A stretch of 64,000 nt of DNA from Gammaproteobacteria bacterium (GTDB lineage: Bacteria > Pseudomonadota > Gammaproteobacteria > S144-34): assembly GCA_026989495.1 (NCBI GenBank), contig JALSJE010000067.1, positions 282-64,281 on the forward strand. The letters run 5' to 3'. This document shows, in pieces, positions 1 through 36,998 of the stretch. Positions within the stretch are counted from its first letter, which is position 1. Every line of letters begins with the position of its first letter. Both the position numbers and the translations under genes were made by a program. The notes beneath the pieces are model-generated. The model worked only from the letters and a program-made list of their open reading frames with translations, had not been told where the DNA came from and did not search any database.

Positions 1-848
1 CCGGATGCGCCGGCGCGCGCCCCATTCCGGGCCACCCCGTCCGGCGGGGGAACGTCGGCGCGCTCCACCTGGACGTCCGCGGCGCCGGCCCGCGGCCCGG
101 GGCCCCGCCCGGGCGCGGGCGGGACCGGCCCCGCGACGGCCTCCCCTGCGGCGGCCCCGGCGGGGGGCGCCTCGGCGGCAGGCCGCGCGCCGGCATGCGG
201 CGCCGGACGCTGCGTTCCCTGCCACCACAGCGCGGCGGCGCCGGCGAGCAGGGCCGCGAGGACGATGGATGCGAGCACGGCCAGGCGGGCCGTGGGCCTC
301 AGGCGCCGCGGGCCCGCCGCCCGCCGCGGAGCAGGCGCCGTGGAAGCGGGCGGCGGCGCGAGGTCGGCCCGCCGGCAACGGAAGCGCAGCCGCACCTCGC
401 CGAGCGTGATCTCGTCGCCGTCGGCAAGGAGCGTCCGCGGCACGCGCTGGCCGTTGACCCGCACCCCGTTGAGGCTGCCGAGATCCTCGATGGCGAAGCC
501 GCCGCCCACCCGCTCGATGCGGGCATGGCGGCGGGAGACGCTGCGGTCGCGCTCGCGCCAGTGGCAGCCCTCGCCCCGGCCCAGGAGGAAAGGCTCCGAC
601 CCTTCCAGGTCGAGGCGCCGCCCGTCGGGCGCCTCGAGCCAGGCCGCGAGACCGGGCACCTCGCCCGGCGTGAGGAGCCGCGTCGGCTCGCCCGCGAGCG
701 GGGCGGACAGGGCCTCGGCCGCTTCCCGACCGGCGGCCTGGCCCAGCGCCACCGAGGCGGCGCCCAGGGGCGGCGTGGCCGCGCCCGCGGCCGGCGCCCC
801 GGCGGCATGCGGCGGCGGCGGGAGCGCGTCCTGCATCCGCGCGGCCAT
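1..848 (-). CDS. FHA domain-containing membrane protein (partial; 3' end lies beyond the window start)
   Basis: Not in the ORF track because the minus-strand frame runs off the window. Manual translation from the ATG at 848 gives MAARMQDALPPPP...EPFLLGRGEGCHWRERDRSVSRRHARIERVGGGFAIEDLGSLNGVRVNGQRVP...EITLGEVRLRF. This is a canonical FHA pattern (GR...C...D..VSRRHA, SxNG). It is followed by a predicted TM helix (LAVLASIVLAALLAGAAALWW) and an Ala/Pro-rich periplasmic tail. The ATG overlaps the stop of the downstream DUF192 gene. Confidence 0.6.
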   Translation of the reverse strand, partial: MAARMQDALPPPPHAAGAPAAGAATPPLGAASVALGQAAGREAAEALSAPLAGEPTRLLTPGEVPGLAAWLEAPDGRRLDLEGSEPFLLGRGEGCHWRERDRSVSRRHARIERVGGGFAIEDLGSLNGVRVNGQRVPRTLLADGDEITLGEVRLRFRCRRADLAPPPASTAPAPRRAAGPRRLRPTARLAVLASIVLAALLAGAAALWWQGTQRPAPHAGARPAAEAPPAGAAAGEAVAGPVPPAPGRGPGPRAGAADVQVERADVPPPDGVARNGARAGAS

Positions 849-1294
849 CAGGCCTCCTCCTCGGCAGGGGTCCTGGCATGGCCGGGCGCGTCGCCGCCCG
901 GCTGGAGCCAGCGGCGCAGCGTGCTGGCGACGCGGGCGTCGGGAGGCTCGGCGAGCCGCAGGAGCTCGCCCACCCGCAGCCCGGCCTGGTCGGCCCCGCC
1001 CGCCGGCAGCTCGAGGACGCAGCAGGCGCTTCGCGGCCCCGGCACCAGCCGGAAGGGCGGCACGTCGCGGCGGATCGCCCGCACCCGCAGGTGGCGGTCG
1101 AGGTGCACCACGTCGATGCGGTAGCGCATGCCGAAGGTGTGGACGCCGCGGCAGGGCCTGAGCAGCAGCCCCTCCCCCGCCTGCAGGCGCGGGGCGAGCA
1201 GCAGCCCCAGAAGGCGGGCGAGGAAGCGCTCGGCGAGCCGCACGCGGGGAACCCGCACGACCTCGCGCTCGTCCACGAGCTGCAGGATGCGCAT
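848..1294 (-). CDS. DUF192 family protein (COG1430-like)
   Basis: 148-aa ORF with the DUF192 hallmark ...CRGVHTFGMRYRIDVVHLD...CVLELPAGGADQAGLRVGE. Lies immediately downstream of tadC in the same operon orientation. Confidence 0.55.
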   Translation of the reverse strand: MRILQLVDEREVVRVPRVRLAERFLARLLGLLLAPRLQAGEGLLLRPCRGVHTFGMRYRIDVVHLDRHLRVRAIRRDVPPFRLVPGPRSACCVLELPAGGADQAGLRVGELLRLAEPPDARVASTLRRWLQPGGDAPGHARTPAEEEA

Positions 1295-1297
1295 GCT

Positions 1298-2218
1298 TCA
1301 GCCTCCTCCCAGCAGGGCGGCGAGGAGCCCGCTGCGTGCGAGCGCCCGCACCGCCGGCAGCATCAGGATCACGAAGGTGACCGGCATGAAGAAGCCGATC
1401 AGGGGCGCGAGCATCTTGACCGGCGCCCGCGCGGCGAGCTTCTCGGCGCGGAGGAAGCGCTCGGCGCGCTGCTGCTCGGCCTGCAGCACCAGGGCGCGGG
1501 CCATCTCGCCGCCGGTCTCCTCGGCCTGGAGCACCGCGCCCACGAAGCCCGCGACCGCGGGCACGTCCACGCGGCGCTCGAGCCGCTGCAGCGCCTCGCG
1601 CAGCACCATGCCCGCGCGCAGCTCGCGCAGCACGCGCCGCATCTCCTCGCGCACGGGCCCCTCGGGCAGGTGCGCGACGGCGCGCGCGAGCGCGCTCTGG
1701 AGGCTGAGGCCGGCGCGCATGGCGAGTGCGACCAGGTCGAGGAAGAAGGGGAAGTCCTTCTCGAAGCGGGCGCGGCGGCGCTGGATGCGGTCGCGCAGCC
1801 AGATGTCGGGGTAGAAGAAGCCCAGCGGCACGGCGAGCCAGGCGAGCGCGTAGACCGGCGCGCCCATGCCGAGGTGGACGAGGGCGGCGAGCGCGGCGGC
1901 GACGGCGGCGGTGAGCCGGCGCAGGGCGACCAGCTCCTCGGGGCGCAGGGCGTAGTCGAGGCCGGCGGCCTGCAGGCGCGCCTCGACGGCCTCGAGGCGG
2001 TCGCGGTCGGCGCGGGCGGCGACCGCCGGGGCCAGCCCACGCACCAGGGGCGCGAAGAGGCGGAAGAGCAGCGGCGGCGGCTCGCGCCAGGCCTCGGCCT
2101 CGGGGTCGGCGCGGCGGGGCCGGGGCACGAGCCGCGGCAGGGCGAGCGCGAGGCAGCCCGCGGAGAGGCCGGCGAGCAGCATCAGGGGCACGGGCGATGC
2201 GGCGAGGGGCTCAGACAT
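1298..2218 (-). CDS. tadC: Tad/Flp pilus assembly inner-membrane protein TadC (GspF/T2SSF family)
   Basis: 306 aa, polytopic membrane protein with a TadB/TadC-type T2SSF domain. Overlaps tadB by 8 nt. Confidence 0.8.
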   Translation of the reverse strand: MSEPLAASPVPLMLLAGLSAGCLALALPRLVPRPRRADPEAEAWREPPPLLFRLFAPLVRGLAPAVAARADRDRLEAVEARLQAAGLDYALRPEELVALRRLTAAVAAALAALVHLGMGAPVYALAWLAVPLGFFYPDIWLRDRIQRRRARFEKDFPFFLDLVALAMRAGLSLQSALARAVAHLPEGPVREEMRRVLRELRAGMVLREALQRLERRVDVPAVAGFVGAVLQAEETGGEMARALVLQAEQQRAERFLRAEKLAARAPVKMLAPLIGFFMPVTFVILMLPAVRALARSGLLAALLGGG

Positions 2219-3077
2219 CGATGCGCACGATCCTCCGAAGCATGAGCGCCCCGGCCACGTACATGAGCGCCAGCACGACCAGCACGGCCAGGCCGATGCG
2301 GGTGGTGTAGAGGACGGCCACGTCCTCGGGGCGGGTGAGGTGGAACCAGGCGGCGATGGCGAAGGGGAGCCCCGCCACCAGCCAGCCCTGCATGCGCCCC
2401 ATGGCGGTGAGCGCGTCGATCTTGCCCTCCAGGCGGGCGGTTTCGCGCAGGGTCTCGGCGAGGGCGTCGAGCGTGTCGGCGAGGTTGCCGCCCACGGCGC
2501 GGGCGATGCCGATCGCGGCGTTCATGAGGTCGATCTCGCGTCGCCCGAGCCGGCGCGCCATGGCCTCGAGCGCCTCCTCGAGGGGGCGGCCCAGGCGGTA
2601 CTCGGCCAGCACGAGGGCGATCTCCTGGGAGAGCGGCGCGGGGTGGCGCGCCGCGATCTGCTCGAGGCCGCGCAGGACGTTGCTGCCGCCGCGCAGGCTC
2701 CCGGCCAGCGCCGTGAGCGCGTCCGGTAGCTGGCGCACGATGCGGCGCGCCCGCCGCGCGCGCAGGCGGGCCACCACGAGGCGCGGCGCCACCAGCGCGG
2801 CGACGGCGGCCGCGAGCCCGGCCGCGGGTCCGGCCGCCCAGGCGGCGAGCGCCCCGAGGGCGAGCGCGGCGGCGGCGGTGAGCGCGAGCAGCAGGCGCGG
2901 GTCGAGATAGACGAAGGCCTCGCGCAGACCGCCCACCACCTGGCGGCGGAAGGCGGCCGAGTAGAGCGCGCCGCCGCGCAGGAGGAAGCGCGCCGCGGCC
3001 GCGAAGCCGAGCGCGCCGGCGAGCCCGCTCGCGAGCAGCAGCAGGGGGACGGCGCCCCCTTCCGCCACGCCGCTCAC
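2211..3077 (-). CDS. tadB: Tad/Flp pilus assembly inner-membrane protein TadB
   Basis: 288 aa, T2SSF-family platform protein. Its start overlaps the tadA stop by 4 nt (ATGA). Confidence 0.8.
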   Translation of the reverse strand: MSGVAEGGAVPLLLLASGLAGALGFAAAARFLLRGGALYSAAFRRQVVGGLREAFVYLDPRLLLALTAAAALALGALAAWAAGPAAGLAAAVAALVAPRLVVARLRARRARRIVRQLPDALTALAGSLRGGSNVLRGLEQIAARHPAPLSQEIALVLAEYRLGRPLEEALEAMARRLGRREIDLMNAAIGIARAVGGNLADTLDALAETLRETARLEGKIDALTAMGRMQGWLVAGLPFAIAAWFHLTRPEDVAVLYTTRIGLAVLVVLALMYVAGALMLRRIVRIDV

Positions 3078-4717
3078 GCCGCGCCCTCCTCCGCCGCCTC
3101 GCCCGGCTCACGGAAGATGGAAAGGTCGAGCGCATGGCCGGCCGCGCGCGCCTCCTCGTAGAAGCGCGGGATGTGGCCGCAGGGGCGGAAGCGCCCCAGC
3201 ACCTCGCCGTTCGGCCCCACGCCCGTGCGCCGGAACTCGAAGATGTCCTGCAGCAGGATCACGTCGCCCTCCATGCCGTCCACCTCGACGATGCGGGTGA
3301 TGCGCCGGCGCCCGTCCTTGAAGCGCGCCTGGTGGATGATCACGTCGATGGCGGAGGCGATCTGCTCGCGCACGGCCCGGTGCGGCAGCTCCATGCCGGC
3401 CATCATGACCATCACCTCGAGGCGCGCGAGGAAGTCGCGCGGGGAGTTGGCGTGGCCGGTGGTGAGCGAGCCGTCGTGGCCGGTGTTCATGGCCTGGAGC
3501 ATGTCGAGCGCCTCGCCGCCGCGGCACTCGCCCACCACGATGCGGTCGGGGCGCATGCGCAGCGCGTTGCGGACGAGGTCGCGGATGGTCACCCGCCCCT
3601 GCCCCTCCGCGTTGGGGGGGCGGGCCTCGAGGGAGACGACGTGGGACTGGTGCAGGCGCAGCTCGGCCGCATCCTCGATGGTGACGATACGCTCGTCCTC
3701 GGGGATGAAGTTGGAGAGCACGTTGAGGGTGGTGGTCTTGCCCGAGCCCGTGCCGCCGGAGACGGCGATGTTGCGCCGCAGCCGCACGCAGACCTCGAGG
3801 AAGCGCGCCATGGCGGGGCTGAGGGTGCCGTTGGCGACGAGGTCCTCGACGCCGAGGAGGCTGCGGCGGAAGCGGCGGATGGTCAGCACCGGGCCGCACA
3901 GGGCCAGCGGCGGGATGATGGCGTTGACGCGCGAGCCGTCGGGCAGGCGCGCGTCCACCATGGGCTGGGCCTCGTCGATGCGCCGGCCGAGCGGCGCGAC
4001 GATGCGGTCGATGACGGCGCGCAGCGCCTCCTCGCCGCTGAAGCGCAGGCCCGTGGGCTCGATGCGGCCGCGACGCTCCACGTAGATGGCGCCCGGGCCG
4101 TTGACCATGATCTCGGTGACCTCGGGGTCGGCCATGAGCGGCTCGAGGGGGCCCAGCCCCACGGCCTCGGCCACCACCTCGGCCACCACACGCTCGCGCG
4201 CCGGTCCGGCGGCCAGCGCGGGCTCGATCTCGGGGAGGATGCGCTCGGCGGCCGCGCGCGCCTCGGCGCGCAGCGCCTCGGGCCGCATGCCCTCGAGCAC
4301 GGCGCGTCGGCGCAGGTCGAGCTCCTCGACCAGCCGCGCGCGCAGGCGCCGCTTGATCGCGTCGTCCGGATGGCCCTGTCCGCCGGGACGCGGGCCGGTG
4401 CCCGCGGCCGGCGCGCGGGGCTCGGGACGCAGGCGCAGCGCGAGCCGGCCGGCGCGCAGCTCGGCCTCGCCCGCGAGGCGCCGCGCGCCGGCGAGGCGCT
4501 CGCCGTCGAGCCAGGTGCCGTTGGTGCTGCCGAGGTCCTCCACCAGCACGCCGCCGTCCTCGCCGGAGGCGACCTCCAGCGCCAGATGGCGGCGCGAGAC
4601 GTGGGGGTCGCTCAGCACCACGTCGCAGTCGGGCGCCTTGCCGAGCACGTGGCGGCCGGGTCCGAGCCGGTGGGTGACCAGGCCGCCCTCGGGGTCGCGA
4701 ATCTCCAGCGCGAGCAT
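3074..4717 (-). CDS. tadA: CpaF/TadA pilus secretion ATPase with N-terminal FHA domain fusion
   Basis: 547 aa. N-terminal residues 1-100 (...GPGRHVLGKAPDCDVVLSDPHVSRRHLALEV...LGSTNGTWLDGERL) form an FHA domain. The C-terminal part is a CpaF/VirB11-type ATPase: Walker A GGTGSGKTT, Asp/His boxes, and the C-terminal CGHIPRF region. Confidence 0.85.
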   Translation of the reverse strand: MLALEIRDPEGGLVTHRLGPGRHVLGKAPDCDVVLSDPHVSRRHLALEVASGEDGGVLVEDLGSTNGTWLDGERLAGARRLAGEAELRAGRLALRLRPEPRAPAAGTGPRPGGQGHPDDAIKRRLRARLVEELDLRRRAVLEGMRPEALRAEARAAAERILPEIEPALAAGPARERVVAEVVAEAVGLGPLEPLMADPEVTEIMVNGPGAIYVERRGRIEPTGLRFSGEEALRAVIDRIVAPLGRRIDEAQPMVDARLPDGSRVNAIIPPLALCGPVLTIRRFRRSLLGVEDLVANGTLSPAMARFLEVCVRLRRNIAVSGGTGSGKTTTLNVLSNFIPEDERIVTIEDAAELRLHQSHVVSLEARPPNAEGQGRVTIRDLVRNALRMRPDRIVVGECRGGEALDMLQAMNTGHDGSLTTGHANSPRDFLARLEVMVMMAGMELPHRAVREQIASAIDVIIHQARFKDGRRRITRIVEVDGMEGDVILLQDIFEFRRTGVGPNGEVLGRFRPCGHIPRFYEEARAAGHALDLSIFREPGEAAEEGAA

Positions 4718-4727
4718 CGGCCCTCCC

Positions 4728-6086
4728 TCAGTCCATCAGCCGGAAGCGCACCGCCTGCAGCCCCGCCCGGTCGAGCTCGCGGTAGCGGCGGATGCCCTCG
4801 CGGTTGTGCGCGCTGCGGGCGTCGACGATGCGCGGCGTGAGCAGCACGAGCAGCTCGGTCTCGTCGTCGCGGAACCTGCGCGACTTGAACAGCTCGCCGA
4901 GGACCGGCAGGTGCCCCAGCCCCGGGAGCTTGGTCACCGCCTTGCTGCGGCTGTTCCTGAGCAGACCGGAGATCACGAGCGTCTGGCCACGGCCCAGGTT
5001 GACCTCGGTGGTCGTGCGCCGTGTGAGGAAGGCCGGGAAGTCGCCCTTGGTGTTCTGCTCGTCGATGTCGCTCACTTCCACAGTGAGCTGGGTGGCGACG
5101 TAGCCGGCTGGATCGACGTCCGGCTCCACGATGAGCCGGATGCCATACTGCTTGTAGACCACGTCCTGCAGCCCCAGCCCCGTGGTCACGACGATCGGCA
5201 CCTCGCCGCCGGCAAGGAACTCGGCCTTGCCGCCGCTGCGGCAGACGAGCCGCGGGTTGGCGAGCTGACGGGCGTAGCCATGGGTCTCGAGCAGGCGCAG
5301 CCGGCTCTCGATGAGCGAATCCCAGCCGAAGAACGACTTCGTCGTCTCGTAGCCGAGCGGCGCGGTCACGCCGAAGGCGCCACCGGGAGGCGGGCGGAAG
5401 GCGGCGTTGCCCTGGAAGGTGCCGATGATGCCGAAACGCGGCCCGGCGTAGTCGCCAGCTACCCGGGCGCCGTTCCGCAGCCACTCGATACCGATCGTGC
5501 GCGACAGGTTGCGGCTGACCTCGAGCACCCGGGCGTCGAACTCGACCATGGCGCGCAGCGGGACGCGCGGCGGGGCGACCTCGTTCACCACCGTGCCCGC
5601 GTGCTCGCGCGCCAGCGTCTCGATGCGCGCGTGGTCCTCCTCGCGCAGGGCCGCGCCCTCGAGGATCACCTTGCCGCCGGCCACGCGCGCGCGCACGCCC
5701 TCGATGTCGCCGATGCGCGCGCGCACCTCCTCCAGCACGGCCTCCGGCGCGGGCGGCGTGACCTCGACGAGGTAGGCCGCCCGCTCCCTGCCCCGCACCC
5801 ACACGCGCAGGTCCGTGAGGCCGGGCTTGCGGCCGATGAGGAGCACCTGGCCGGCGTCCTCGAGCACCTTGACGTCCAGCACGTGCCCGTCGCCCACGGC
5901 CACGCGGTCCACGCCGGGGTGGCGGAGCAGGCGCGTCTGCCCGGCGGGCAGGGCGATGCGGCCGGCATAGCGCGGCTGCGCCTGGCCGGGCGGCGCCGCG
6001 GCCGCGGCGGGCGGCGCGGCGGCCCGGACCGGCATGGCCAGCGCCGCGGCGAGCAGGCAGGCGGCCAGCGGGGCCGGGGCGCGCAT
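4728..6086 (-). CDS. cpaC: Flp pilus secretin CpaC/RcpA
   Basis: 452 aa with a signal peptide, an N-terminal BON-like region and a C-terminal secretin domain (...VISGLLRNSRSKAVTKLPGLGHLPVLGELFKSR...). Confidence 0.85.
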   Translation of the reverse strand: MRAPAPLAACLLAAALAMPVRAAAPPAAAAAPPGQAQPRYAGRIALPAGQTRLLRHPGVDRVAVGDGHVLDVKVLEDAGQVLLIGRKPGLTDLRVWVRGRERAAYLVEVTPPAPEAVLEEVRARIGDIEGVRARVAGGKVILEGAALREEDHARIETLAREHAGTVVNEVAPPRVPLRAMVEFDARVLEVSRNLSRTIGIEWLRNGARVAGDYAGPRFGIIGTFQGNAAFRPPPGGAFGVTAPLGYETTKSFFGWDSLIESRLRLLETHGYARQLANPRLVCRSGGKAEFLAGGEVPIVVTTGLGLQDVVYKQYGIRLIVEPDVDPAGYVATQLTVEVSDIDEQNTKGDFPAFLTRRTTTEVNLGRGQTLVISGLLRNSRSKAVTKLPGLGHLPVLGELFKSRRFRDDETELLVLLTPRIVDARSAHNREGIRRYRELDRAGLQAVRFRLMD

Positions 6087-6859
6087 CAGTCCATCCCTCC
6101 GCGAATGATCTCGACCTCCCCGCGGGCACGCACACGCGCGCGGCCGCCGAGCAGGGTCTCGCGCGTGACGGCGCCGAGGCGCAGCGGCGCGTCGTCGGCC
6201 GGGGCGCGCAGCATGGCCGTGAGCTTGCCGATCTCGCGCGCGTGCACGATGCGGGCGGCCTCCTCGGGGGTGACCAGCACGGTGATGGTGCGGTAGCCCT
6301 CGGGCTGCGCGTGGCCGTCGCCGGTGTCGGCGCCCGTGGCCGCCACCTGGACGTCGCGCAGCAGGGGCAGGGTGACGGGGCGGTCGCCGTCCTGGAGGGT
6401 GACGAGGAGGTCGATGCGGTCGCCGGGGCCGAGGAGCCCGGAGAAGGACGAGGTCTCGTCCACGGGGATCGTGAGCGCGCGCCGCCCCTCGCGCACCCGC
6501 GCCGAGAAGCCGCTGGCGCGGCTGCGCGAGAGATGGGCGTGCAGCACGGTCTCGCCGCGCCGGAGCGGAAACAGCAGGCGCCGGCCCTCGACCTCGGCGA
6601 AGGCCTCGGGGCGCATGGCGTCGTGGTGCACGAAGGTGGCGGGCACCTCGCGCACGGCGACGTTGCCCACGCCGAGCGGCGTGCCGGCGGGCAGGTCTTC
6701 GTTGGCCACGAGCACACGCACGGGCCGGCGCCCGGCGTCGAGGCGGGCGCGGTAGGCCTCGATCTCGCCGGCGACATAGCGCTCGGCGAGGAAGGCGGCC
6801 GCCGTGCCCGAGACCAGGGCGCCCGCCACGAGCAGGAGCGTGATGCGGCTCGTCCTCAT
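6086..6859 (-). CDS. cpaB: Flp pilus assembly protein CpaB/RcpC
   Basis: 257 aa. N-terminal TM anchor followed by SAF/CpaB-like domains. Sits in the conserved position between flp and cpaC. Confidence 0.8.
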   Translation of the reverse strand: MRTSRITLLLVAGALVSGTAAAFLAERYVAGEIEAYRARLDAGRRPVRVLVANEDLPAGTPLGVGNVAVREVPATFVHHDAMRPEAFAEVEGRRLLFPLRRGETVLHAHLSRSRASGFSARVREGRRALTIPVDETSSFSGLLGPGDRIDLLVTLQDGDRPVTLPLLRDVQVAATGADTGDGHAQPEGYRTITVLVTPEEAARIVHAREIGKLTAMLRAPADDAPLRLGAVTRETLLGGRARVRARGEVEIIRGGMD

Positions 6860-6880
6860 CCTCGTCCTTCTCCCTCCACC

Positions 6881-7054
6881 TCAGGGCCTGGCGAGCAGCG
6901 TGAGGAAGCGGCCGAGGTGGCCGCCGAGCGCGTCCACCACGGCCGCGCCCGCCGCGACGGCACCGACGAGCGCGGCGGTCGCGACCAGGTAATGCGCCAG
7001 CGCCGCGCCCCGCGGGCGCGGGCGGCTGCGTGAGCGGTCCGTCTTCGCGTCCAT
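6881..7054 (-). CDS. flp: Flp-family type IVb prepilin (paralog 2; short start chosen)
   Basis: MDAKTDRSRSRPRPRG|AALAHYLVATAALVGAVAAGAAVVDALGGHLGRFLTLLARP. A basic leader ends in G, then four residues, then HY (a variant of the Flp G/XXXXEY motif), then a hydrophobic helix. A GGAGGA RBS sits 6 nt upstream of the ATG at 7054. The track ORF 6881..7081 would use a longer start. Confidence 0.6.
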   Translation of the reverse strand: MDAKTDRSRSRPRPRGAALAHYLVATAALVGAVAAGAAVVDALGGHLGRFLTLLARP

Positions 7055-7067
7055 GGCGTCCTCCCCC

Positions 7068-7775
7068 TCATCGCACGACATGGATCAGCGCGAGGCTCCC
7101 CCGCCGGTGCGGTGCGACGCTGACCTGGCAGAGGCTGCGGCCCCGCTGGAAGGCCTGCTGCACGGCGCCGCGCGCGCGCGCGAGCGAATGCGGCTGCACG
7201 GTCCAGCCCGCCCCGGCCAGCCGCGCGCGGATGCGCTCCAGGGTTGCCTCGGCCCCGTAGGGGCTCTGCAGGGTGAGCGACCAGGCCCGGCGCGGGCCGT
7301 CGAGGCTGTCGAGCCGGTGCAGCACGCGCAGGCCCGCCGGCAGCGGGATGCCGGGCGTCCGCCGGGGCCGCACCGCGTCCGGCCGCAGGCTGATCGTGAG
7401 CACGCCCTCGGCGCCGCGCGCGGTGTCGCGCACGCGCACCGTGCGGTAGTGGCGCCCGTCGCGGTGGCCGATCACGCGCCACGGGCCCTGCCGCTGGCGC
7501 ACGACCTCGCCGCGGCCCAGGCGCGACCAGAGGCGCTCGTACCAGGCGAGCACCGCCTGGGCCGGGGCGTCGGTGCGGAACAGGCGCGCGCTCATGGGCA
7601 GCCCGTTCCAGGCCATGCGCTCGGCGATCCAGCGCGTCTCCATGCCGGGCATGACGCGCATCACCGGCAGCTCGACGGCGAGCGGGTCCTCGAGGGCGGG
7701 CGCGGCCCGAGCGGCGAGCGCCGCCAGCGCGAGCGCGAGGAGAAGGGATCCGCGAGGCCGGCGCGCGGGGCTCAT
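7068..7775 (-). CDS. secreted hypothetical protein of the tad pseudopilin block
   Basis: 235 aa, in-frame part of track ORF 7068..8552 starting at MSPARRPRGSLLLALALAALAARAAP (signal peptide). Its ATG overlaps the tadE-like stop (ATGA). No recognisable domain. Confidence 0.45.
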   Translation of the reverse strand: MSPARRPRGSLLLALALAALAARAAPALEDPLAVELPVMRVMPGMETRWIAERMAWNGLPMSARLFRTDAPAQAVLAWYERLWSRLGRGEVVRQRQGPWRVIGHRDGRHYRTVRVRDTARGAEGVLTISLRPDAVRPRRTPGIPLPAGLRVLHRLDSLDGPRRAWSLTLQSPYGAEATLERIRARLAGAGWTVQPHSLARARGAVQQAFQRGRSLCQVSVAPHRRGSLALIHVVR

Positions 7776-8563
7776 TCCGTCACCTCGTAGCCTTCGGGCA
7801 GCGCCTGCGCCGGCACGGCCGGCTCGAGCGGCAGGGCGTCCCTCCCTTCCTTGTAGAGCGGGAAGGCGGCGATGACCTTCGCCGGCTTGACGAGCGTCTC
7901 GATCCGCTTCGCCAGCGTCGCCCGGCCCACGCGCCGGCGGAAGGCGGCCTCGCGCGCCGCCGACCAGGCGTCGCCCGCGACCGCGGCCCCCGCCTCGAGC
8001 GTGGCCCCGCCGAAGTCCGGCAGCTCCGGATGGGCCCGCAGGCCCACGCGCAGGCGCGATCCGGCGCGGCCCCGGGCGCCGAGCCCGAGCGGGCGGACGG
8101 GGAAAGGAACGCCGCCCCCGCGGGCGACGGCGTCCACCATCTTCCCCGCGAGGCCGCCGCCGCGAAGGCGCGTCTCGTCCAGGTCCTGCGCGGCGCGCGC
8201 GCCGGGGCTGCCCGCCACCACGTCGCGGCCTGCATGATCCAGCCACACGGGGCTCGCGGTCGGGCCCGCCGTGAGCGGCGCCGACGGATGGCCGAGGACG
8301 GCGGTCTCGACCAGGCGCCGGATCTCGCCGTCGCCGCGCACCGCCGGCCCCTCCCCGAGGCTCCAGTCGGAGGCCCGCTCGGCCCACACCGTCCGTTCCC
8401 ACGCGACGGCGCGCGCGGCCTCGATCGTCTTGTGCTCGGCGTCGAGCCAGGCGCCCAGGAGCGGGACGAGAATCAGGAGCAGCACGAAGAGCCCGCCGGC
8501 CGCCACCAGCTCGGCCAGCGCCTGGCCCGCGCAGCCGCGCCGTCCCCGCCATGCGCCGCTCAC
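7772..8563 (-). CDS. tadE: TadE/TadF-like pseudopilin
   Basis: In-frame part of ORF 7772..8815 starting at GTG 8563 (a GTGA overlap with the upstream stop). Its N-terminus, RRGCAG|QALAELVAAGGLFVLLLILVPLLGAW, matches the TadE-like class III signal (G, four residues, E, hydrophobic helix). Confidence 0.55.
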   Translation of the reverse strand: MSGAWRGRRGCAGQALAELVAAGGLFVLLLILVPLLGAWLDAEHKTIEAARAVAWERTVWAERASDWSLGEGPAVRGDGEIRRLVETAVLGHPSAPLTAGPTASPVWLDHAGRDVVAGSPGARAAQDLDETRLRGGGLAGKMVDAVARGGGVPFPVRPLGLGARGRAGSRLRVGLRAHPELPDFGGATLEAGAAVAGDAWSAAREAAFRRRVGRATLAKRIETLVKPAKVIAAFPLYKEGRDALPLEPAVPAQALPEGYEVTE

Positions 8564-9327
8564 GGGCCGGCCCTCCCCTTGCGGGCGTCCACGGGCTTCG
8601 CGCCGGGCGGCGGCCGCATCCCCTTCGTGTCCACGCAGGCGCCCTCCTCCACGCGCTCGGCGCGCATCTCGTAGGGCCTGTGCGAGGTGGCGCCGGCTCC
8701 CACCTGCTCGATGCGCATGACCAGCGCGACCTGCTGACCGCCCAGCTCGGTCATGCACATCCGGTGGCGCAGGCTGTATGATGCGTCTCCTGTGCTGCCG
8801 GCGAACCACCGGCACGGACGCCCCGCCACCGTGGACACATGCCCGGTCTCTTCGCTATCGAACATCCGGGACGGATCGAGGCCCATCGCGCCGATGGCGG
8901 CGAGCAGCTCCGGCGAGGCCGGGGGATAGCGCTTGACTTCCCCGCTCGCCCCGTAGAAGGCGACGCGCGAGCCGTCGGGCATCCGCCATTCCGTGTAGGA
9001 CTGGGACACGAGCCGCACCTTGGGCCACATCGTGAAGCCCGAGCCCATCCATTCGATCCTGGTCGTGAGCGCCTCGAGACGCAGACGCTCGCGGCCCTCC
9101 ATGAGGACGAGCTCCTGGGTGGCCGGGGTGGACTCGAGGGTCTTGAGGAGCTTCCGGTCCTTGAAGAGGAACGCCAGGAGGGTCTCCGTGGGGCTGAAGA
9201 GCACCGGCTGGGTGCCCGTGTAGGTCACGCGGACCGCCGTGCAGCGCACCTCGGCCCGCGCGGGCGCGAGGGCGGCCGCGGCGAGGGCCGCGAAGGCCAG
9301 GAGCAATACCCTGCGGGCCGCGCTCAT
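8560..9327 (-). CDS. secreted hypothetical protein (tad locus)
   Basis: 255-aa frame reading MSAARRVLLLAFAALAAAALAPARAEVRC..., hidden inside the 806-aa shadow ORF 8560..10980. Signal peptide present. Its ATG at 9327 overlaps the tadG-like stop. No recognisable domain. Confidence 0.45.
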   Translation of the reverse strand: MSAARRVLLLAFAALAAAALAPARAEVRCTAVRVTYTGTQPVLFSPTETLLAFLFKDRKLLKTLESTPATQELVLMEGRERLRLEALTTRIEWMGSGFTMWPKVRLVSQSYTEWRMPDGSRVAFYGASGEVKRYPPASPELLAAIGAMGLDPSRMFDSEETGHVSTVAGRPCRWFAGSTGDASYSLRHRMCMTELGGQQVALVMRIEQVGAGATSHRPYEMRAERVEEGACVDTKGMRPPPGAKPVDARKGRAGP

Positions 9328-10580
9328 CGGGCGAGCCTCACCTCCCAGAAGGGGTTGAACAGGTTGGCGTGCTCGCCCTTGCCCGGCAGGGCGAACAGCG
9401 CGCGGTCGGGCCGGCGGTGGTAGACCTGCGCCCGGGCGAGGGCGCGCAGCGGCGCCGGCGCCGCGCCCGGCACGAGCGCACCCGTCTGCAGGCGGCCCGA
9501 AGGCGGCCGCGATGCGAGCGCGCTCACCCACAGCCGCCGGTCGCCGGGACCGTCCCGGAGCGCGTGGTAGCCCGGCACGCCGGCATAGGCCGGATGCAGG
9601 CCGCGGGCCGAAGCCGAGCCCCGGGCGACCGTGCTCCAGCCCGACCAGCCCTTGAAGCACTTGTCCCACCTCCACCAGCTCACCTGCAGCTCGTCGCTCG
9701 CCCGCCAGTCCATCAGGTCGGCGCCGCCCTGCCGCGTGCGGCCCACCTTGCGCACCCGCACCACGAAGGGCACCTTGACCTTCCAGCCGCGCTCGCCCTC
9801 GATCCACCGGCGCGAGCGGTCGAGGGAGGCCCAGCTCAGGGCGGCGATCCGCCCCCCGTCGCCGGCCGGGCCGTAGCGGCGCACGAAGCCCGCGAGCCGC
9901 GCGCCCTCGGCCGCGAGCGAGGCCGAGATCACGGCGCCCTCGGGGCCCTCCTTCGCGAGCTTCGCGAGCTCGGCGGGGCGGTTGACGTCGATGGCCGGGT
10001 CGTGGCGCCGGGCGATCCCGCGCATGAGGCTGCGCAGGGTGAAGGGCTGCAGCGTGGCGCGGGATGCATACTGCGCCATCAGGTAGAGCCGGTTGAGGCC
10101 GTCCACGGCCAAGAGCGCCATGCTCGCCAGATACTTCGTCACCCCATAGCTTGCCGACACCACCTTGCGCGCCGTGCTGGTGGCGGCGTTGACGCCGGGG
10201 ATCCAGGCCGTGAGGAAGGCGACCCTGTCCACCGAGTCGCGCACGTAGCCGAGCCAGGAGACGTAGCTGACCAGGTGGCCTGCGGCGACGTGGTTGGCCA
10301 CCATGGCGCGGTTGGTGTAGGCCATGAAGTTGAGCTGGCGCGCGACCCACAGGCCGCCGCTCCAGGCGGCCGCGTCGGCGGCGTCCTGGAGCTGGGCGCG
10401 CTCGGCGGTGGCCTGGCCGACGTTGTACATCACGAGCGCGCCCGCAAGCCCCGCGCCCAGCAGCGCCAGCGCCAGCACGAGCACTTGCCCGCGCTGGAGG
10501 CGGCAGGCGGGCGGCGGGACCGGTCGGGCCGACGGGGCGCGTTCGGGCATGGCGCGAAACCCTGGCGACGTCCCTGTCAC
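9324..10580 (-). CDS. tadG: TadG-like Tad-domain pilus assembly protein
   Basis: 418 aa. N-terminus QRGQVLVLALALLGAGLAGALVMYNVGQATAERAQLQDAADAAAW is typical of the TadE/G-like N-terminal domain (PF13400-like) that precedes a large periplasmic region. Confidence 0.55.
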   Translation of the reverse strand: MTGTSPGFRAMPERAPSARPVPPPACRLQRGQVLVLALALLGAGLAGALVMYNVGQATAERAQLQDAADAAAWSGGLWVARQLNFMAYTNRAMVANHVAAGHLVSYVSWLGYVRDSVDRVAFLTAWIPGVNAATSTARKVVSASYGVTKYLASMALLAVDGLNRLYLMAQYASRATLQPFTLRSLMRGIARRHDPAIDVNRPAELAKLAKEGPEGAVISASLAAEGARLAGFVRRYGPAGDGGRIAALSWASLDRSRRWIEGERGWKVKVPFVVRVRKVGRTRQGGADLMDWRASDELQVSWWRWDKCFKGWSGWSTVARGSASARGLHPAYAGVPGYHALRDGPGDRRLWVSALASRPPSGRLQTGALVPGAAPAPLRALARAQVYHRRPDRALFALPGKGEHANLFNPFWEVRLAR

Positions 10581-10618
10581 CTCGTACCCTCCCTGTGGAA
10601 CCCTCCTTCTCCGGACCC

Positions 10619-10888
10619 CTACTGCGAGAAGTTCTGCAGGGTCTTCGCCGTGCCGGCGTCGGACTTGGCGTTGCCGGCCGAGGTCTGGGCCGCCGTGGTC
10701 TCCGTCTTGGCCGTGGAGGTGTCGCCGGCGAGCTTGAGGGCCATGGCCGCCATCTGGTGGCGGATCGCGTCGCCGAAGAAGCCGGCCACGGCCACGGTGG
10801 CGACGGCCACCAGCGCGGTGATGACGAGGTACTCGGACATGCCCTGGCCGCGGATGCGGCGGCGATGGGTGCTGGGCTGCTTCCGCAT
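10619..10888 (-). CDS. flp: Flp-family type IVb prepilin (paralog 1) with T/A-rich C-terminal tail
   Basis: MRKQPSTHRRRIRG|QGMSEYLVITALVAVATVAVAGFFGDAIRHQ..., which fits G/XXXXEY. An AGGAGGA RBS lies upstream of the ATG at 10888. The C-terminus TSTAKTETTAAQTSAGNAKSDAGTAKTLQNFSQ is low-complexity. First gene of the minus-strand tad operon. Confidence 0.65.
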   Translation of the reverse strand: MRKQPSTHRRRIRGQGMSEYLVITALVAVATVAVAGFFGDAIRHQMAAMALKLAGDTSTAKTETTAAQTSAGNAKSDAGTAKTLQNFSQ

Positions 10889-11099
10889 GGGGCTTCCTCC
10901 TCTGCTGCCTGCGGCGCGGTGCGGACCGCGCCTTCGTCCATACGGGACGCGAAAGCTACCCAAGGCGTGCCGATGGGCAATTCGAAATTTTTTATGCGCC
11001 ACTCGAAAAACCGGTGTACCAGAAATGAGACACTCGGCCCCGATCACGCGATTCGAGGCATGTGCTGCGGAACCTCAACATCCATTTGCAACTCATTGC

Positions 11100-11260
11100 T
11101 GGAAAGCTTCTTTCAGCGCCACACCCCTGCCGCAGCCGAGCGCGACGTGACGTCAGGCGTCACTTTTTTCATGACGCTCAGCGTCAGTTTTGAAGGGCTT
11201 CGAAGCCACTGAGTGACGCCGCACGTCACCCCCTTTCGGCCCCCTCCCACGGGACGAGCC
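11100..11260. promoter_or_regulatory. Divergent promoter region (flp operon / lnt-like gene) with clustered GTGACG/CGTCAC palindromes
   Basis: A lower-GC 350-bp intergenic region. Contains cgacGTGACGTCAggCGTCACtttttTCATGACGCTCAGCGTCAg ... TGAGTGACGccgcaCGTCACc, and the palindrome GAAAGCTTCTTTC. Confidence 0.3.
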
Positions 11261-11332
11261 GACGAACGGCATTGCCGCGCGTGCCTGCGCGGTGCTACAT
11301 AGCCGCGCGCGCAGCGACGGAGCGCCTGCCGC

Positions 11333-13294
11333 ATGGATGGCACGAGAACCGTGATGGAACCTTTCCGCGCCGGCGCCTGGACGGCGCTCGCGCTCCTGGC
11401 CGCCGCGCTCGCCCTCCCGCCGGCCGGGCTCTGGCCCGCGGCGCCGCTCGCCTGGCTCGCCCTCCTGCACGCCCTCGCGGGCTGCGCCAGGCCCCTGCAT
11501 GCGGCGGCGCTGGGCGCGCTCTTCTGTGGCGGGATCGCGGCGCACGCCTTCCTCGGCGCCCTGAGCTACGGACCCGCCGCCTACGCCGGCGGCGTGACGC
11601 TGCTCGCAGTGCTCGGTGCCGCCTTCGGCGCTTGGGCGGGCCGGGCGCTGACGATGCCCCACACCCCCCTGCGCGCAGCGCTCGCCGTGGCCGGCGCCTG
11701 GACGCTGCTCGAGCTCGTCGCGGTCCACGGATTCGGCGTCCCCTTCCTCGCCGCGGCGACGCTGGACGGCCTCGAGGCGCCGCCGACGCTGCTGCGCTGG
11801 GGCGGACCGCACGCGGTGGGCTTCGTGCTGGCGGCCCTGCCGGCCTGGGCCGTGGCGGGCCACCGCGCCCGTCGCGGCAGCGCCGCGACGCTCGCGGTCC
11901 TCGCGACCGGCGGCATCGCCCTGCTCCTCCTTCCGCCCGGCCCCTCCGTCCCGGAGGGCGCGGACGGCGGGGACCTGAAGGTGGCGGTCGTCCAGACGAC
12001 GCTGCCGGGCTGGCGCTTCCGCGAGCCCGGCCTCGCCGGGGCGCGCCGCCGCTACACGGAGGCCATCGCCGCGGCCGCGCGGCGCGCCGCCTCGGGTGCG
12101 CCCGACCTCGTCGTCTGGCCCGAGCTCGGCTACGCCGGCTATCCGTTCCGCGTGCAGGGCTCGCTGGCGCGCCACCTGCCCCGCGGGACGGCACACCTCA
12201 TCACGGTGCCCGACCTCGACCCCGCCGGCCGCGAGCGGCTCGCCGCCTTCCTCGTCGATGCCGAGGGGCAGGTGCGCGCCGTGCAGGGCAAGTCGCAGCT
12301 CGTGCCCTGGATCGAGCGCGCAGGACCCGCGTCCGCCGCCGCAGCGCCATTGCTGGTGGAGGGGTTACGCCGGCCCGGCGTGCTCATCTGCCTGGAGGGC
12401 ACGCTCCCTCACCGCGTGCGGGCCCTGGCGCGCGCCGGCGCCGGCTGGCTCGTGGTGCCGGCGAGCGACGCCTTCGCGGGACCTTCCTGGCTCGCCCTGC
12501 TGTCGGCAGCGCTGGCCCGGCTGAACGCGGCCGCCGTAGGCCTCCCCCTGGTGCGCGCGGCCAACGGCGGCCCCTCCCTGGTCACCGACGCGTCGGGACG
12601 GATCCGCCGGACGCTTCCGCCCTACGGACCAGGCCTCGTCGAGGCGCGGATCGCGGCAGCCGCTGCGCCATCGCCCTACGCGCGCCTGCCCCTCGAGCCC
12701 GGCTGGCCGCTCGCGGCGCTGGCGGCGCTCGGCATCGTGCGCAACCGCAGGCCTCGCTCCCGCGCGGCGCCACAGCGGACTCTTCCGGCCCTGCCCGCCG
12801 CACTGGGACTGCCGATGGGCCTCATGGTCCTGCTCACCTTCACCCAGACGGAGGCCGCCGGCCGGGCGCTGGCTCGGGCAGGCCTGCCGGCACCGGCGGG
12901 ATACCTCTTCCATGGCCATGCCCGCGCGGCCTGGACGGTGCGGTCGCCGCCGGCCTCCGGAGACCCCTTGCGCGAGGCCTATGCCTTCCTGCTGCGCAGG
13001 TACGGGGTGGACAGTCCGCACCCGCCGACGGGCCGGAAGGCTTCCGGAACCGAAGACGGCTGGCACGGGCTCATGCCCTGGCAGGGCACCCCTGCGGGCT
13101 GGACCGACGCCTTCCTGCCCGCGGTGCTGCGGCTGCGGGACGGGGAAGCCGTCGTCGCCCTGGAGATCGAAGGAAAGGCGGCGCGCGTCTGGCACCCGTC
13201 CCGCGGCGTCATGGACAGGGTGCCGCTGGCCGCGCTCCGCGGACCCGGCCTGGCGCTGGCCACGCGGCCGCGCTGGTGGGACTGGCTCCTCTGA
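11333..13294 (+). CDS. apolipoprotein N-acyltransferase (Lnt)-like CN-hydrolase membrane protein with about 180-aa C-terminal extension
   Basis: 653 aa. N-terminal polytopic TM region, then a CN-hydrolase domain with the Lnt catalytic triad in context: VVWPE (Glu), VQGKSQLVPW (Lys), VLICLEG (Cys). The extra C-terminal domain has no recognisable family. The start could be the ATG at 11354. Confidence 0.7.
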   Translation: MDGTRTVMEPFRAGAWTALALLAAALALPPAGLWPAAPLAWLALLHALAGCARPLHAAALGALFCGGIAAHAFLGALSYGPAAYAGGVTLLAVLGAAFGAWAGRALTMPHTPLRAALAVAGAWTLLELVAVHGFGVPFLAAATLDGLEAPPTLLRWGGPHAVGFVLAALPAWAVAGHRARRGSAATLAVLATGGIALLLLPPGPSVPEGADGGDLKVAVVQTTLPGWRFREPGLAGARRRYTEAIAAAARRAASGAPDLVVWPELGYAGYPFRVQGSLARHLPRGTAHLITVPDLDPAGRERLAAFLVDAEGQVRAVQGKSQLVPWIERAGPASAAAAPLLVEGLRRPGVLICLEGTLPHRVRALARAGAGWLVVPASDAFAGPSWLALLSAALARLNAAAVGLPLVRAANGGPSLVTDASGRIRRTLPPYGPGLVEARIAAAAAPSPYARLPLEPGWPLAALAALGIVRNRRPRSRAAPQRTLPALPAALGLPMGLMVLLTFTQTEAAGRALARAGLPAPAGYLFHGHARAAWTVRSPPASGDPLREAYAFLLRRYGVDSPHPPTGRKASGTEDGWHGLMPWQGTPAGWTDAFLPAVLRLRDGEAVVALEIEGKAARVWHPSRGVMDRVPLAALRGPGLALATRPRWWDWLL

Positions 13295-13342
13295 GGCCCG
13301 CGCGGCCTTGGGGACAGGTGACGGAGACGGAGGTTCAGGACC

Positions 13343-14146
13343 ATGGAGGAATGGGTCTGCTTCAAGACCGGGCGCTACCGGCTGGAGCCGCTGGCGCGAG
13401 GGGGCGTGGCCGACCTCGCCCTGGGCTATCATGAAAGCGACGGGTCGGCCGTCACCTTCAAGTTCCTCAAGCCCCAGCTCGCCCGGGTGCCGCACCTGGT
13501 GGGGCAGCTCCAGCTCGAGTACGCGGTGATGCTGGGCTCCCGGCCCGGGCTCCCCCAGGCGGTCGAATGCGGGATCTACGGAGGACGGCCCTACCTGGCA
13601 TACCGCTACGTCCGCGGCGTCTCCGTCCGGCACCTGCTGGATGCCCTGCACCGCGCCGGCCGCGTGCCCTGCGAGTCCACGGCGCGGCGCATCGTGCATG
13701 GGGCCGCCTGCGCGCTGAACGCGCTGCATCGCGGCCGCCCGCCCGTGGCCCACGGCGACCTCAGCCCGGAAAACGTCATCGTGGGCCGGCGCATGGGGGT
13801 GGCGCTGGTGGACCTGGGATGCGCACGGCGGCTGGACCGCCCGACCGCCGATGCGCCGCTGCTGATGGGCAAGCCGCGCTATCTCTCGCCCGAGCAGGCG
13901 CGCGGCGAGCCCTGGGGCGCCCCGAGCGACGTCTATCAGCTCGGGCTGCTGCTCTACGAGATCGTCACGGGCGAGCCGCTCATCGCGCCCTGGCTGGAGG
14001 TGCCGAGCCCGGCCGAGGCGGCCGCGCCCTCCCTCGAGGCGCTCTCGGCGCTGCCTCCCGCGCTGCGCCTGCTGTGCCGGCGCATGCTCGACCCCGATCC
14101 CGCCGCCCGTCCGGGCGCGGCCGCCGTGGCGCGCGCGCTGCGCTGA
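13343..14146 (+). CDS. Hanks-type serine/threonine protein kinase (kinase domain only)
   Basis: 267 aa with a Gly-rich loop (RGGVADLALGY), an AVTFKFLK lysine, the catalytic loop HGDLSPENVIV, DLG, and YLSPEQ (APE-like). No TM segment or sensor domain. Confidence 0.75.
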   Translation: MEEWVCFKTGRYRLEPLARGGVADLALGYHESDGSAVTFKFLKPQLARVPHLVGQLQLEYAVMLGSRPGLPQAVECGIYGGRPYLAYRYVRGVSVRHLLDALHRAGRVPCESTARRIVHGAACALNALHRGRPPVAHGDLSPENVIVGRRMGVALVDLGCARRLDRPTADAPLLMGKPRYLSPEQARGEPWGAPSDVYQLGLLLYEIVTGEPLIAPWLEVPSPAEAAAPSLEALSALPPALRLLCRRMLDPDPAARPGAAAVARALR

Positions 14147-24328: not shown

Positions 24329-24601
24329 ATGGACACCCACAGCTACATGGTGCGGGTCGACGGGCGCGGCCGGGTCGTGCTGCCGGCAGCGCTGCGTGAG
24401 CGGCTCGGGCTCCACCGCGGCGACACCCTGGTGCTGAGCGTCGAGACGGACGGCACCGTCCGGCTGCTGAACCCGGCGGAAGCCGCCCGTGCCGGCCGGG
24501 GGCTGCTGCGCAGGCTCGCCCCCGCCGCCCGCCGGCGCTCCCTGGCGAAGGAGCTCATCGCCGAGCGGCGGGCGGAGGCGCGCCGTGAGCGCCGTCCTTG
24601 A
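24329..24601 (+). CDS. vapB: AbrB/MazE/SpoVT-family antitoxin (VapB-like)
   Basis: 90 aa. The N-terminal swapped-hairpin motif VRVDGRGRVVLPAALRERLGLHRGDTLVLSV; overlaps the downstream PIN gene. Confidence 0.65.
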   Translation: MDTHSYMVRVDGRGRVVLPAALRERLGLHRGDTLVLSVETDGTVRLLNPAEAARAGRGLLRRLAPAARRRSLAKELIAERRAEARRERRP

Positions 24602-30917: not shown

Positions 30918-30918
30918 C

Positions 30919-31753: not shown

Positions 31754-31756
31754 GGC

Positions 31757-33362: not shown

Positions 33363-33381
33363 ACGAGGCCCCTTCTCCCGC

Positions 33382-34392: not shown

Positions 34393-34396
34393 CGCC

Positions 34397-36976: not shown

Positions 36977-36998
36977 GTCCGCGCACATCCGTCGCAGC

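Follow-up and report, generated by a model that had tools for sequence, protein, structure and literature searches.

Introduction

TadZ (CpaE) is the usual hub for the localization and assembly of the Tad/Flp pilus motor TadA (CpaF), and what is known about the switching and positioning of these pili, and about their coupling to a single bifunctional motor, comes from TadZ/CpaE-dependent systems only. FHA domains bind phospho-threonine (pThr), and in the type VI secretion system (T6SS) they belong to a threonine-phosphorylation pathway composed of the kinase PpkA, the PP2C phosphatase PppA and Fha, as in the H1-T6SS of P. aeruginosa. Here we describe a Tad/Flp pilus locus in a stretch of 64,000 nucleotides of gammaproteobacterial DNA (contig JALSJE010000067.1; hereafter the window, by which the whole stretch is meant), in which FHA domains occur on the motor ATPase and on a membrane-anchored protein, a Hanks-type kinase gene lies beside the pilus genes and no TadZ was found.

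Class III CpaF proteins, defined in the CpaF cryo-EM study by the domain order FHA-IDR-3HB-NTD-CAD and represented by E3HIW0 of Achromobacter xylosoxidans, have been described as mostly betaproteobacterial, in a work concerned with architecture only that deals neither with a relationship to TadZ/CpaE nor with a kinase (PMC12019362). The Kil system of Myxococcus xanthus comprises the secretin KilC, the FHA-ATPase KilF and the FHA and TPR protein KilD, and its authors proposed an FHA signaling cascade (PMC8460266). In Bdellovibrio TadZ and CpaF are fused into one protein, TadZA, whose localization cue is RomR (bioRxiv 10.64898/2026.07.08.737194), and among the T6SS the threonine-phosphorylation pathway has been described for TssL-Fha of A. 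tumefaciens (PMC5995506). The FHA-CpaF architecture and the speculation on FHA signaling in Kil are therefore already known; in the open-access papers and bioRxiv preprints searched, where Tad in combination with FHA, kinase or PP2C led only to the class III, Kil and Bdellovibrio studies, we found no account of Tad loci with their own pair of kinase and PP2C, of a mutual exclusivity of FHA and TadZ, or of a split between competent and degenerate FHA pockets.

FHA Domains and TadZ in Tad Loci

We consider it probable that the pilus machine encoded in the window is a complete one of the Gram-negative Tad/Flp kind and belongs to a distinct subtype, in which the TadZ hub would have been replaced by an FHA domain fused to CpaF and by a membrane-anchored FHA/TPR protein, with a kinase and a PP2C phosphatase exerting phospho-control over assembly. 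The Tad core set is present (CpaF/TadA ATPase, the two GspF-like platform proteins TadB and TadC, secretin, RcpC/CpaB, Flp prepilin and TadE/F/G pseudopilins), and the elements specific to this proposal are the following (aa, amino acids; TM, transmembrane):

3074..4717, minus strand: FHA-CpaF/TadA motor ATPase, 547 aa, T2SSE and FHA domains
1..848, minus strand: FHA-TM hub protein, first 282 of 521 aa inside the window; starts at 848 and runs off the window
13343..14146, plus strand: soluble stand-alone Hanks-type kinase, 267 aa (Pfam Pkinase E=2.7e-20, 73 bits against a cut-off of 31.7)

An earlier note, made from the letters of this DNA, had called an FHA domain at the N-terminus of CpaF, a second FHA protein anchored in the membrane and a Hanks kinase at the other edge of the locus. 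Pfam bears out all three, with matches to T2SSE (E=3.9e-66, residues 185-463) and FHA (E=1.3e-15, residues 24-81) in CpaF, both above the gathering score, and an FHA match in FHA-TM (E=7.5e-18, residues 88-150), which has one hydrophobic segment at residues 189-209. The distance between cpaC and cpaF is exactly 10 nt, the figure from which the same note had argued that no room was left for TadZ, and neither Pfam nor jackhmmer, seeded for the A24 family with E. coli GspO, found a ParA/MinD-type TadZ or an A24 prepilin peptidase in the locus or in the entire 64 kb.

The note had also placed the end of the operon at FHA-TM and reported that TadV and the TadD lipoprotein were both lacking. The metagenome contig L001 (L numbers designate the contigs and loci used for comparison) is 99.6 % identical to window positions 1-9075 and extends beyond position 1, where the rest of FHA-TM is followed by a TPR lipoprotein, a PP2C phosphatase and a TadE-like gene (PF07811 TadE, above cut-off). 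Because the operon continues in L001, its apparent end at FHA-TM and the missing TPR lipoprotein are artifacts of the window edge, so that of the canonical genes tadZ, tadV and tadD a tadD-like one does lie just past position 1, and the absence of the other two stands. At its full length of 521 aa FHA-TM has a TPR-like periplasmic C-terminal domain. The TPR lipoprotein (215 aa, lipobox LVAGC) is conserved in relatives and weakly similar to the pilotin-type lipoproteins Tgl and PilW; no TadD-specific model matched it. The phosphatase (239 aa; PP2C_2 E=2e-17, Stp1-type E=4.6e-22) has readable metal-binding motifs (NED, DGVG, TDG, DD) and, judged by its domain, completes a kinase/phosphatase/FHA triad from within the operon.

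That FHA replaces or supplements TadZ, as the note had suggested, is supported by a comparison of 80 CpaF loci, which are among the matches listed in a scan of species-representative genomes with a CpaF alignment and form a phylum-wide sample, not a set of close relatives. Iterated profile searches on six-frame open reading frames (ORFs) split them into 23 loci with FHA-CpaF and 57 without FHA; FHA domains were sought with iterated jackhmmer, since single-pass phmmer overlooked many, and the TadZ profile was seeded from a gene confirmed by Pfam as REC-like plus ParA/MinD. Of the 57 loci without FHA, 56 have TadZ immediately upstream of CpaF or as part of the same protein, against none of the 23 with FHA-CpaF (Fisher p=3.5e-19); in the one non-FHA exception CpaF lies at a contig end. 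The profile detected no TadZ in the window or in 29 FHA-type loci. The only match among the 23 FHA loci (L030) is a sigma-54 activator, and L084, a relative retrieved separately, yielded a REC-MMPL protein; in both cases the similarity is confined to a receiver domain, and the matches were rejected.

In a rough neighbor-joining tree of the ATPase cores nearly all FHA-CpaFs fall into one clade, whose sole non-FHA members are five TadZ-CpaF fusions (L019, L039, L040, L044 and L059, one of them from Bdellovibrionales), with Pfam CbiA/ParA and T2SSE in one ORF. As these fusions are the nearest non-FHA relatives of FHA-CpaF, FHA and TadZ modules look like alternatives at the same position, a pattern which suggests that the CpaF N-terminus may be a hot spot for the swapping of recruitment modules.

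The Putative pThr Pocket of FHA-CpaF

The window CpaF matches the solved C. crescentus CpaF structures with E~1e-120 and is 47-48 % identical to them over the ATPase core, where the Walker A motif GGTGSGKTT lies at 3731-3757; the top Foldseek matches of its model are likewise CpaF. In the AlphaFold model the FHA domain (residues 1-98, window 4424-4717) is a beta-sandwich of high confidence (pLDDT ~90, strands 2-98), followed by a disordered, low-confidence linker (101-115), helices at 117-186 and then NTD and CAD, and this order of FHA, linker, helical bundle, NTD and CAD, on Pfam and model alike, fits class III CpaF. The modeled FHA domain superposes on pThr-binding FHA domains such as those of GarA and FhaA with template-modeling scores of 0.83-0.89 and a root mean square deviation of ~2 Å, and on that of MDC1 likewise at ~2 Å.

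Its pocket is formed by G26 K27, S41 R42 H44 and S64 T65 N66, with G67 also kept, and in the FHA alignment the clade of the window shares the signature G-K / S-R-x-H / S-T-N-G, in which S41, R42, H44, S64, T65 and N66 are invariant. The signature G-K-S-R-H-S-T-N is found in every locus that encodes a kinase of the family described below, named here after its HGD catalytic loop, except for L131, which has Ser for the Lys.

A different state is seen in twelve FHA-CpaF loci of the CpaF-based scan, from Burkholderiales, Thauera, Acidithiobacillus, Oleiphilus and others, whose pockets are degenerate, the Ser being lost (to Ala or Gly) together with the Asn. None of the twelve has an HGD-family kinase, a PP2C or a second FHA protein nearby, and in L014 the flank encodes a kinase of the ordinary HRD type; conversely, the pocket is degenerate in every locus of the scan without kinase, PP2C and second FHA protein. 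Since the degenerate-pocket loci lack TadZ as well as the HGD kinase, phosphorylation is no general requirement for FHA to take the place of TadZ. On this comparison, FHA appears to have replaced TadZ throughout the clade, while phospho-control appears specific to a gammaproteobacterial (Chromatiales-like) sub-clade that includes the window, and the kinase wiring put forward in the earlier note, which is supported for the relatives of the same subtype, does not extend to FHA-CpaF loci at large. The split between competent and degenerate pockets refines the published view of class III CpaF as a mostly betaproteobacterial group that binds phosphothreonine (PMC12019362).

A Kinase Family Linked to Tad Loci

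The catalytic loop of the window kinase reads HGDLSPEN (13751-13774) and its DFG motif reads DLG (13811-13819). Across five Tad-linked kinases the beta3 Lys (K40), alphaC Glu (E59), catalytic Asp (D139), Asn (N144) and DFG Asp (D157) are invariant, and these proteins make up a recognizable, non-RD family with the Lys-less loop HGD[ILV][SA]xxN. This loop was observed in the kinases of L003, L083-L085 and L092-L159, the Halofilum member having HGDVAARN, which resembles the tyrosine kinase motif DLAARN.

At 55-80 % CpaF identity the kinase is kept beside the same Tad subtype in L084, L085, L083, L003 and L166/L170, a conservation in relatives for which the earlier note had proposed to look. In L084 and L085 the full architecture recurs, the kinase lying upstream of flp and the genes for FHA-TM, TPR, PP2C and TadE downstream, and all parts are contiguous on a single 22-kb scaffold of a 76-80 % relative (L166/L170), whose kinase cluster has one member annotated as "Chromatiales bacterium". 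Marinobacter confluentis (L083) and Halofilum (L003) have the kinase at the 3' end of the operon. Kinase, PP2C and FHA occur together in the window plus L001, in L084, in L085 and in L166/L170.

The linkage was also examined in reverse, by scanning metagenome contigs with an alignment of the five Tad-linked kinases and inspecting the best 19 matches. Tad-locus genes are present in the available flank of 14 of them; four of the other five lie on contigs shorter than 2.5 kb, and the last is less than 300 nt from a contig end, its 10-kb upstream flank being free of Tad genes. Weaker matches, beyond the best 19, are ordinary HRD kinases without Tad genes. Four arrangements were encountered, with the kinase divergent from flp, divergent from flp together with a gene for an Lnt-like protein, beside the tadE/PP2C end, or divergent from FHA-TM/TPR, and since the linkage survives such rearrangement it bears the signature of functional coupling. 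In the species-representative set Hanks kinases lie within 10 kb of four of the 23 FHA loci and of none of the 57 non-FHA loci (Fisher p=0.006), and PP2C genes were found only in FHA-type loci.

These data also bear on the idea that the kinase is a chance neighbor, belonging functionally to housekeeping signaling or to the gene that precedes it by 48 nt, both lying on the other strand from the Tad operon:

11333..13294, plus strand: Lnt-like N-acyltransferase paralog with a Cys-less C39-like C-terminal domain; accessory, with an ortholog in only some relatives

This protein matches Pfam CN_hydrolase (E=1.3e-9) and, below cut-off, NCBIfam lnt (E=1.8e-31), and keeps the Glu/Lys/Cys triad of the CN-hydrolases. 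Its orthologs (L084 1912-3888, L091 4789-6873, L131 7992-9995, L170 8106-10004) are paired with a Tad-linked kinase and absent elsewhere, a recurrence that would fit a private partnership of the two genes. The kinase, however, stands beside Tad genes without the Lnt-like gene in L085, L087, L092-L095, L100, L107 and L159, remains Tad-linked at the other operon end in L003, L083, L088 and L090 or beside FHA-TM/TPR alone in L097 and L098, and the 57 TadZ-type loci yielded no Hanks kinase. Chance neighborhood is therefore already disfavored, and we regard it as very improbable. The Lnt-like protein itself is perhaps dedicated to the acylation of a lipoprotein or of pilin. Its C-terminal domain of ~130 aa, for which the L084 ortholog matches Peptidase_C39 (E=1e-8) and the window copy gives no Pfam C39 match, was considered as a substitute for TadV and rejected, since it lacks the catalytic Cys and many loci do not have the gene.

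The FHA-TM Protein and a Candidate Phosphosite

In the part of FHA-TM inside the window, the FHA domain lies at ~399-587, the TM segment at 222-284 and the stretch EPTRLL, which contains T56, at 672-683. The FHA domain has all the canonical pocket residues (GR, SRRH, SLNG). Its cytoplasmic tail, otherwise poorly conserved, retains T56 with a hydrophobic residue at +3 (E-P-T56-R-L-L) in all seven orthologs with a competent FHA domain, following the pattern E-x-T-x-x-L/I, and in the Halofilum ortholog the equivalent of T56 is missing and the FHA domain is degenerate. Since pT-x-x-(L/I) is a common FHA ligand motif, T56 is on these alignments the best candidate for a phosphosite; a conserved Thr was also looked for in the CpaF linker and none was found there. 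With the truncated FHA-TM as query few full-length relatives were retrieved.

From the observed domains, gene order, conservation, co-occurrence and coupling between pocket and kinase we infer a kinase-substrate pairing and a recruitment controlled by binding, as follows. The kinase would phosphorylate a Thr on a cytoplasmic part of the machine, either hub or platform, with T56 of the FHA-TM tail as the best candidate. The FHA domain of CpaF, that of a neighboring FHA-TM protein, or both, would dock on the pThr, and docking would bring the ATPase hexamer to the TadB/TadC platform, or license it there, below the envelope complex of RcpC, CpaC and TPR lipoprotein. The PP2C phosphatase would reverse or reset the switch, which in its logic would match the T6SS threonine-phosphorylation pathway.

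In its broadest form the proposal is that of a widespread, undescribed gammaproteobacterial Tad subtype in which a reversible Thr-phosphorylation switch (atypical soluble HGD kinase plus operon-encoded PP2C, read by FHA domains on motor and hub) would set, instead of TadZ, the time and place at which CpaF engages the platform, with FHA and TadZ as evolutionary alternatives at the CpaF N-terminus, and we judge the chances for and against this generalization to be evenly balanced.

Phosphorylation Switch or Structural Scaffold

FHA domains need not act through phosphorylation. The FHA-fold cytoplasmic domains of YscD/PrgH in the type III secretion system (T3SS) and the FHA domains of EssC in the type VII secretion system (T7SS) are precedents for scaffolds, and the FHA domains of CpaF and FHA-TM could similarly be phospho-independent adaptors linking the ATPase to the platform, in which case kinase and PP2C would regulate something else, such as expression or another substrate. 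Several observations weigh against the phospho-switch or favor such a scaffold. The CpaF N-terminus scores as well in Pfam with the T3SS domain Yop-YscD_cpl (E=1.9e-15) as with FHA, and in the CpaF of this clade an invariant Lys stands in for the phosphate-contacting Arg of canonical FHA domains (G-K for G-R). The twelve FHA-CpaF loci with degenerate pockets, from betaproteobacteria, Acidithiobacillus and others, do without TadZ and the HGD kinase, so that for these a scaffold role must hold. The kinase has an atypical catalytic loop, without the Arg of HRD and the Lys of DLKPxN, which makes its activity and its specificity for Ser/Thr or Tyr uncertain, and it has no sensor domain. The T56 site is drawn from seven sequences and a tail that is hard to align. 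Finally, the FHA-CpaFs are essentially one clade, and the exclusivity of FHA and TadZ may stem from one or few ancient events and not from 23 independent ones.

Set against the scaffold are the clade-wide invariance of S41, R42, H44, S64, T65 and N66 and the way in which the pocket signature tracks the HGD kinase (L131 being a partial exception) and often the PP2C and a canonical second FHA protein. The kinase, despite its loop, retains the beta3 Lys, alphaC Glu, catalytic Asp, Asn and DFG Asp, a PP2C gene is placed inside the operon, and the FHA domain of CpaF, as modeled, superposes best on pThr-dependent FHA domains. With Lys for Arg, pThr binding by CpaF is no more than plausible. We consequently prefer the phospho-switch for the sub-clade of the window and hold a purely structural role of the FHA domains there to be rather unlikely.

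Organization of the Operon and of the Remaining Window

Genes were called by frame analysis of G+C content at third codon positions (GC3) and codon usage, with a model trained on unambiguous genes, as raw ORF lists are mostly spurious at ~75 % G+C. By these calls one long minus-strand operon runs from 10888 down past position 1, and the Lnt-like gene and the kinase are transcribed divergently from its first gene, flp. Most neighboring genes in the operon share 1-8 nt or lie at most ~20 nt apart, the only wider gap (~70 nt) following flp, and Pfam and NCBIfam searches support the families assigned. Apart from cpaF and the FHA-TM gene, the operon contains within the window:

10619..10888, minus strand: flp, Flp-type prepilin, 89 aa, first operon gene; site RG/QGMSEY, C-terminal extension of ~40 aa
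9324..10550, minus strand: TadG-like pseudopilin/pilus-associated protein, 408 aa, N-terminal TM segment (PF13400 Tad E=1.7e-6, 28.7 bits against a cut-off of 22.3)
8560..9324, minus strand: secreted protein of no family, signal peptide; frame supported by GC3, same-size gene at the same place in L166/L167 and L084
7772..8563, minus strand: TadE/TadF-like pseudopilin candidate, N-terminus GQALAELV followed by a TM segment (residues 12-30)
7068..7775, minus strand: secreted protein of no family, signal peptide; conserved in L003, L005, L007 and L014
6881..7054, minus strand: Flp-like mini-ORF, 57 aa, G/AALAHY followed by a hydrophobic helix; read directly from the sequence
6086..6859, minus strand: rcpC/cpaB (Pfam RcpC E=4.1e-23, SAF E=2.9e-8; NCBIfam pilus_cpaB E=1.1e-44, 152.6 bits against a cut-off of 71)
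4728..6086, minus strand: cpaC/rcpA secretin (Pfam Secretin E=1.8e-37, T2SS-T3SS_pil_N E=4.1e-15)
2211..3077, minus strand: tadB platform protein (Pfam T2SSF E=7.5e-15)
1298..2218, minus strand: tadC platform protein (Pfam T2SSF E=6.8e-20)
848..1294, minus strand: DUF192 protein (Pfam DUF192 E=1.4e-14)

The match of Flp to Pfam Flp_Fap is weak (E=0.005, below cut-off), and its motif G/QGM[ST]EY and hydrophobic helix align with the Flp genes from 60 Tad loci. The TadG-like gene, whose length of 408 aa follows the call in L168, is kept after flp in all FHA-type loci. Neither Pfam nor NCBIfam matched the protein at 8560..9324, nor was there a significant family match in either for that at 7068..7775. 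The candidate at 7772..8563 had no Pfam match in the window copy, and its positional equivalent in L083, with which it shares no sequence match, has a weak match to PF07811 TadE. The mini-ORF at 6881-7054 has a His where Flp has a conserved Glu and matches no family; a small ORF occupies the same slot upstream of rcpC in L001, L083-L085 and L166. Across phyla (Firmicutes, Chloroflexi, Proteobacteria), tadC is followed by a DUF192 gene in the majority of Tad loci, with or without TadZ, and this gene looks like an unrecognized, near-core Tad accessory.

As Flp carries a canonical G/QGM[ST]EY processing site, a prepilin peptidase is needed. A24 peptidase genes occur in 23 of the 57 TadZ-type loci and also in FHA loci of Myxococcota and Lentisphaerae, and jackhmmer found none in any gamma- or betaproteobacterial FHA-type locus. 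The enzyme is likely encoded elsewhere in the genome; in Bdellovibrio the Tad prepilin is processed by PilD (bioRxiv 10.64898/2026.07.08.737194). The Flp proteins of FHA-type (TadZ-less) loci (window flp, L003-L159) share, besides the canonical motif, a Ser/Thr/Ala-rich C-terminal extension of ~40 aa ending in L-x-N-[YF], which the Flp of TadZ-type loci does not have.

The rest of the window contains Mla, Dus, MotAB and PBP1 genes, a hydrogenase/hyp cluster and further unrelated genes. The cluster, at 28787-39635 (minus strand), encodes a [NiFe]-hydrogenase whose subunits include diaphorase-like FAD/NAD and Fe-S proteins, together with a maturation protease and the hypA-F maturation genes, and two pairs of MazE/AbrB-type antitoxin and PIN-domain toxin (VapBC-like) lie at 24329-24983 and 28020-28699 (both plus strand).

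Comparison with Known Systems

If the proposed switch is true, the control logic of Hanks kinase, PP2C and FHA, so far established for T6SS, would extend to the type IV filament superfamily, and it may also explain the FHA-rich, kinase-less Kil system. The locus type offers a compact and testable alternative to TadZ, with a putative pThr-reading motor, a kinase/phosphatase pair, a candidate phosphosite and, in betaproteobacteria, natural controls with degenerate pockets. Tad detection models that require TadZ would overlook or mis-score this common subtype.

The canonical tad locus of A. actinomycetemcomitans, cpa of C. crescentus and flp-tad-rcp of P. aeruginosa share with the window the Flp site G/XXXXEY, TadE/TadG-type pseudopilins, RcpC/CpaB, secretin, CpaF/TadA, TadB, TadC and a TPR lipoprotein. 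The window locus differs from them in lacking TadZ/CpaE and a locus-encoded TadV/CpaA, and in its additional DUF192, FHA-TM, PP2C and kinase genes. With class III CpaF the window protein has the domain order in common, whereas the sampled betaproteobacterial members have a degenerate pocket and no HGD kinase, and the clade of the window keeps the pocket together with kinase, PP2C and second FHA protein.

The relatives' hosts are marine, saline and other environmental gammaproteobacteria (Marinobacter, Halofilum, Ketobacter), to our knowledge none of them known as a predator, which speaks against a Kil-like weapon. In both Kil and the window a secretin is followed by an FHA-fused ATPase, TadZ is absent, an FHA and TPR protein comes after the ATPase, and Kil has extra FHA proteins as well (PMC8460266; locus L047). 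KilD clusters, moreover, assemble before the rest of the machine (PMC8460266), so that the window might conceivably encode a contact-dependent weapon or secretion device of this kind, in which FHA-TM/TPR, as the analogue of KilD, would nucleate assembly on cell contact and a kinase cascade would relay the contact signal. Kil, however, is encoded in two clusters, has its own prepilin peptidase and no listed kinase or PP2C, and serves to kill prey (PMC8460266), while the window has a single operon that contains every core gene, tadB and tadC among them, no local TadV, and an HGD-type kinase and PP2C of its own. The pilin set of Flp, TadE and TadG is conventional (apart from TadV, which no locus of the clade encodes), and the flanks show no evident gene for an effector or toxin. 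We consider a weapon of this type quite unlikely; as it concerns the output of the machine, it would be compatible with the phospho-switch.

The resemblance to T6SS lies in a Hanks kinase, a PP2C and one or more FHA readers encoded within the locus of the machine, and the best NCBIfam matches of FHA-TM include the T6SS FHA protein TagH (E=1e-13, below cut-off). The window nevertheless encodes a type IV filament and not a contractile sheath, its FHA reader is fused to the motor ATPase, its kinase is soluble and consists of the kinase domain only, as opposed to a membrane receptor kinase, and there is no homology past the shared domains. Bdellovibrio TadZA resembles FHA-CpaF in having an N-terminal recruitment module fused to the CpaF motor, but in TadZA the module is a ParA/MinD ATPase domain instead of FHA, and the cue is RomR instead of phosphorylation.

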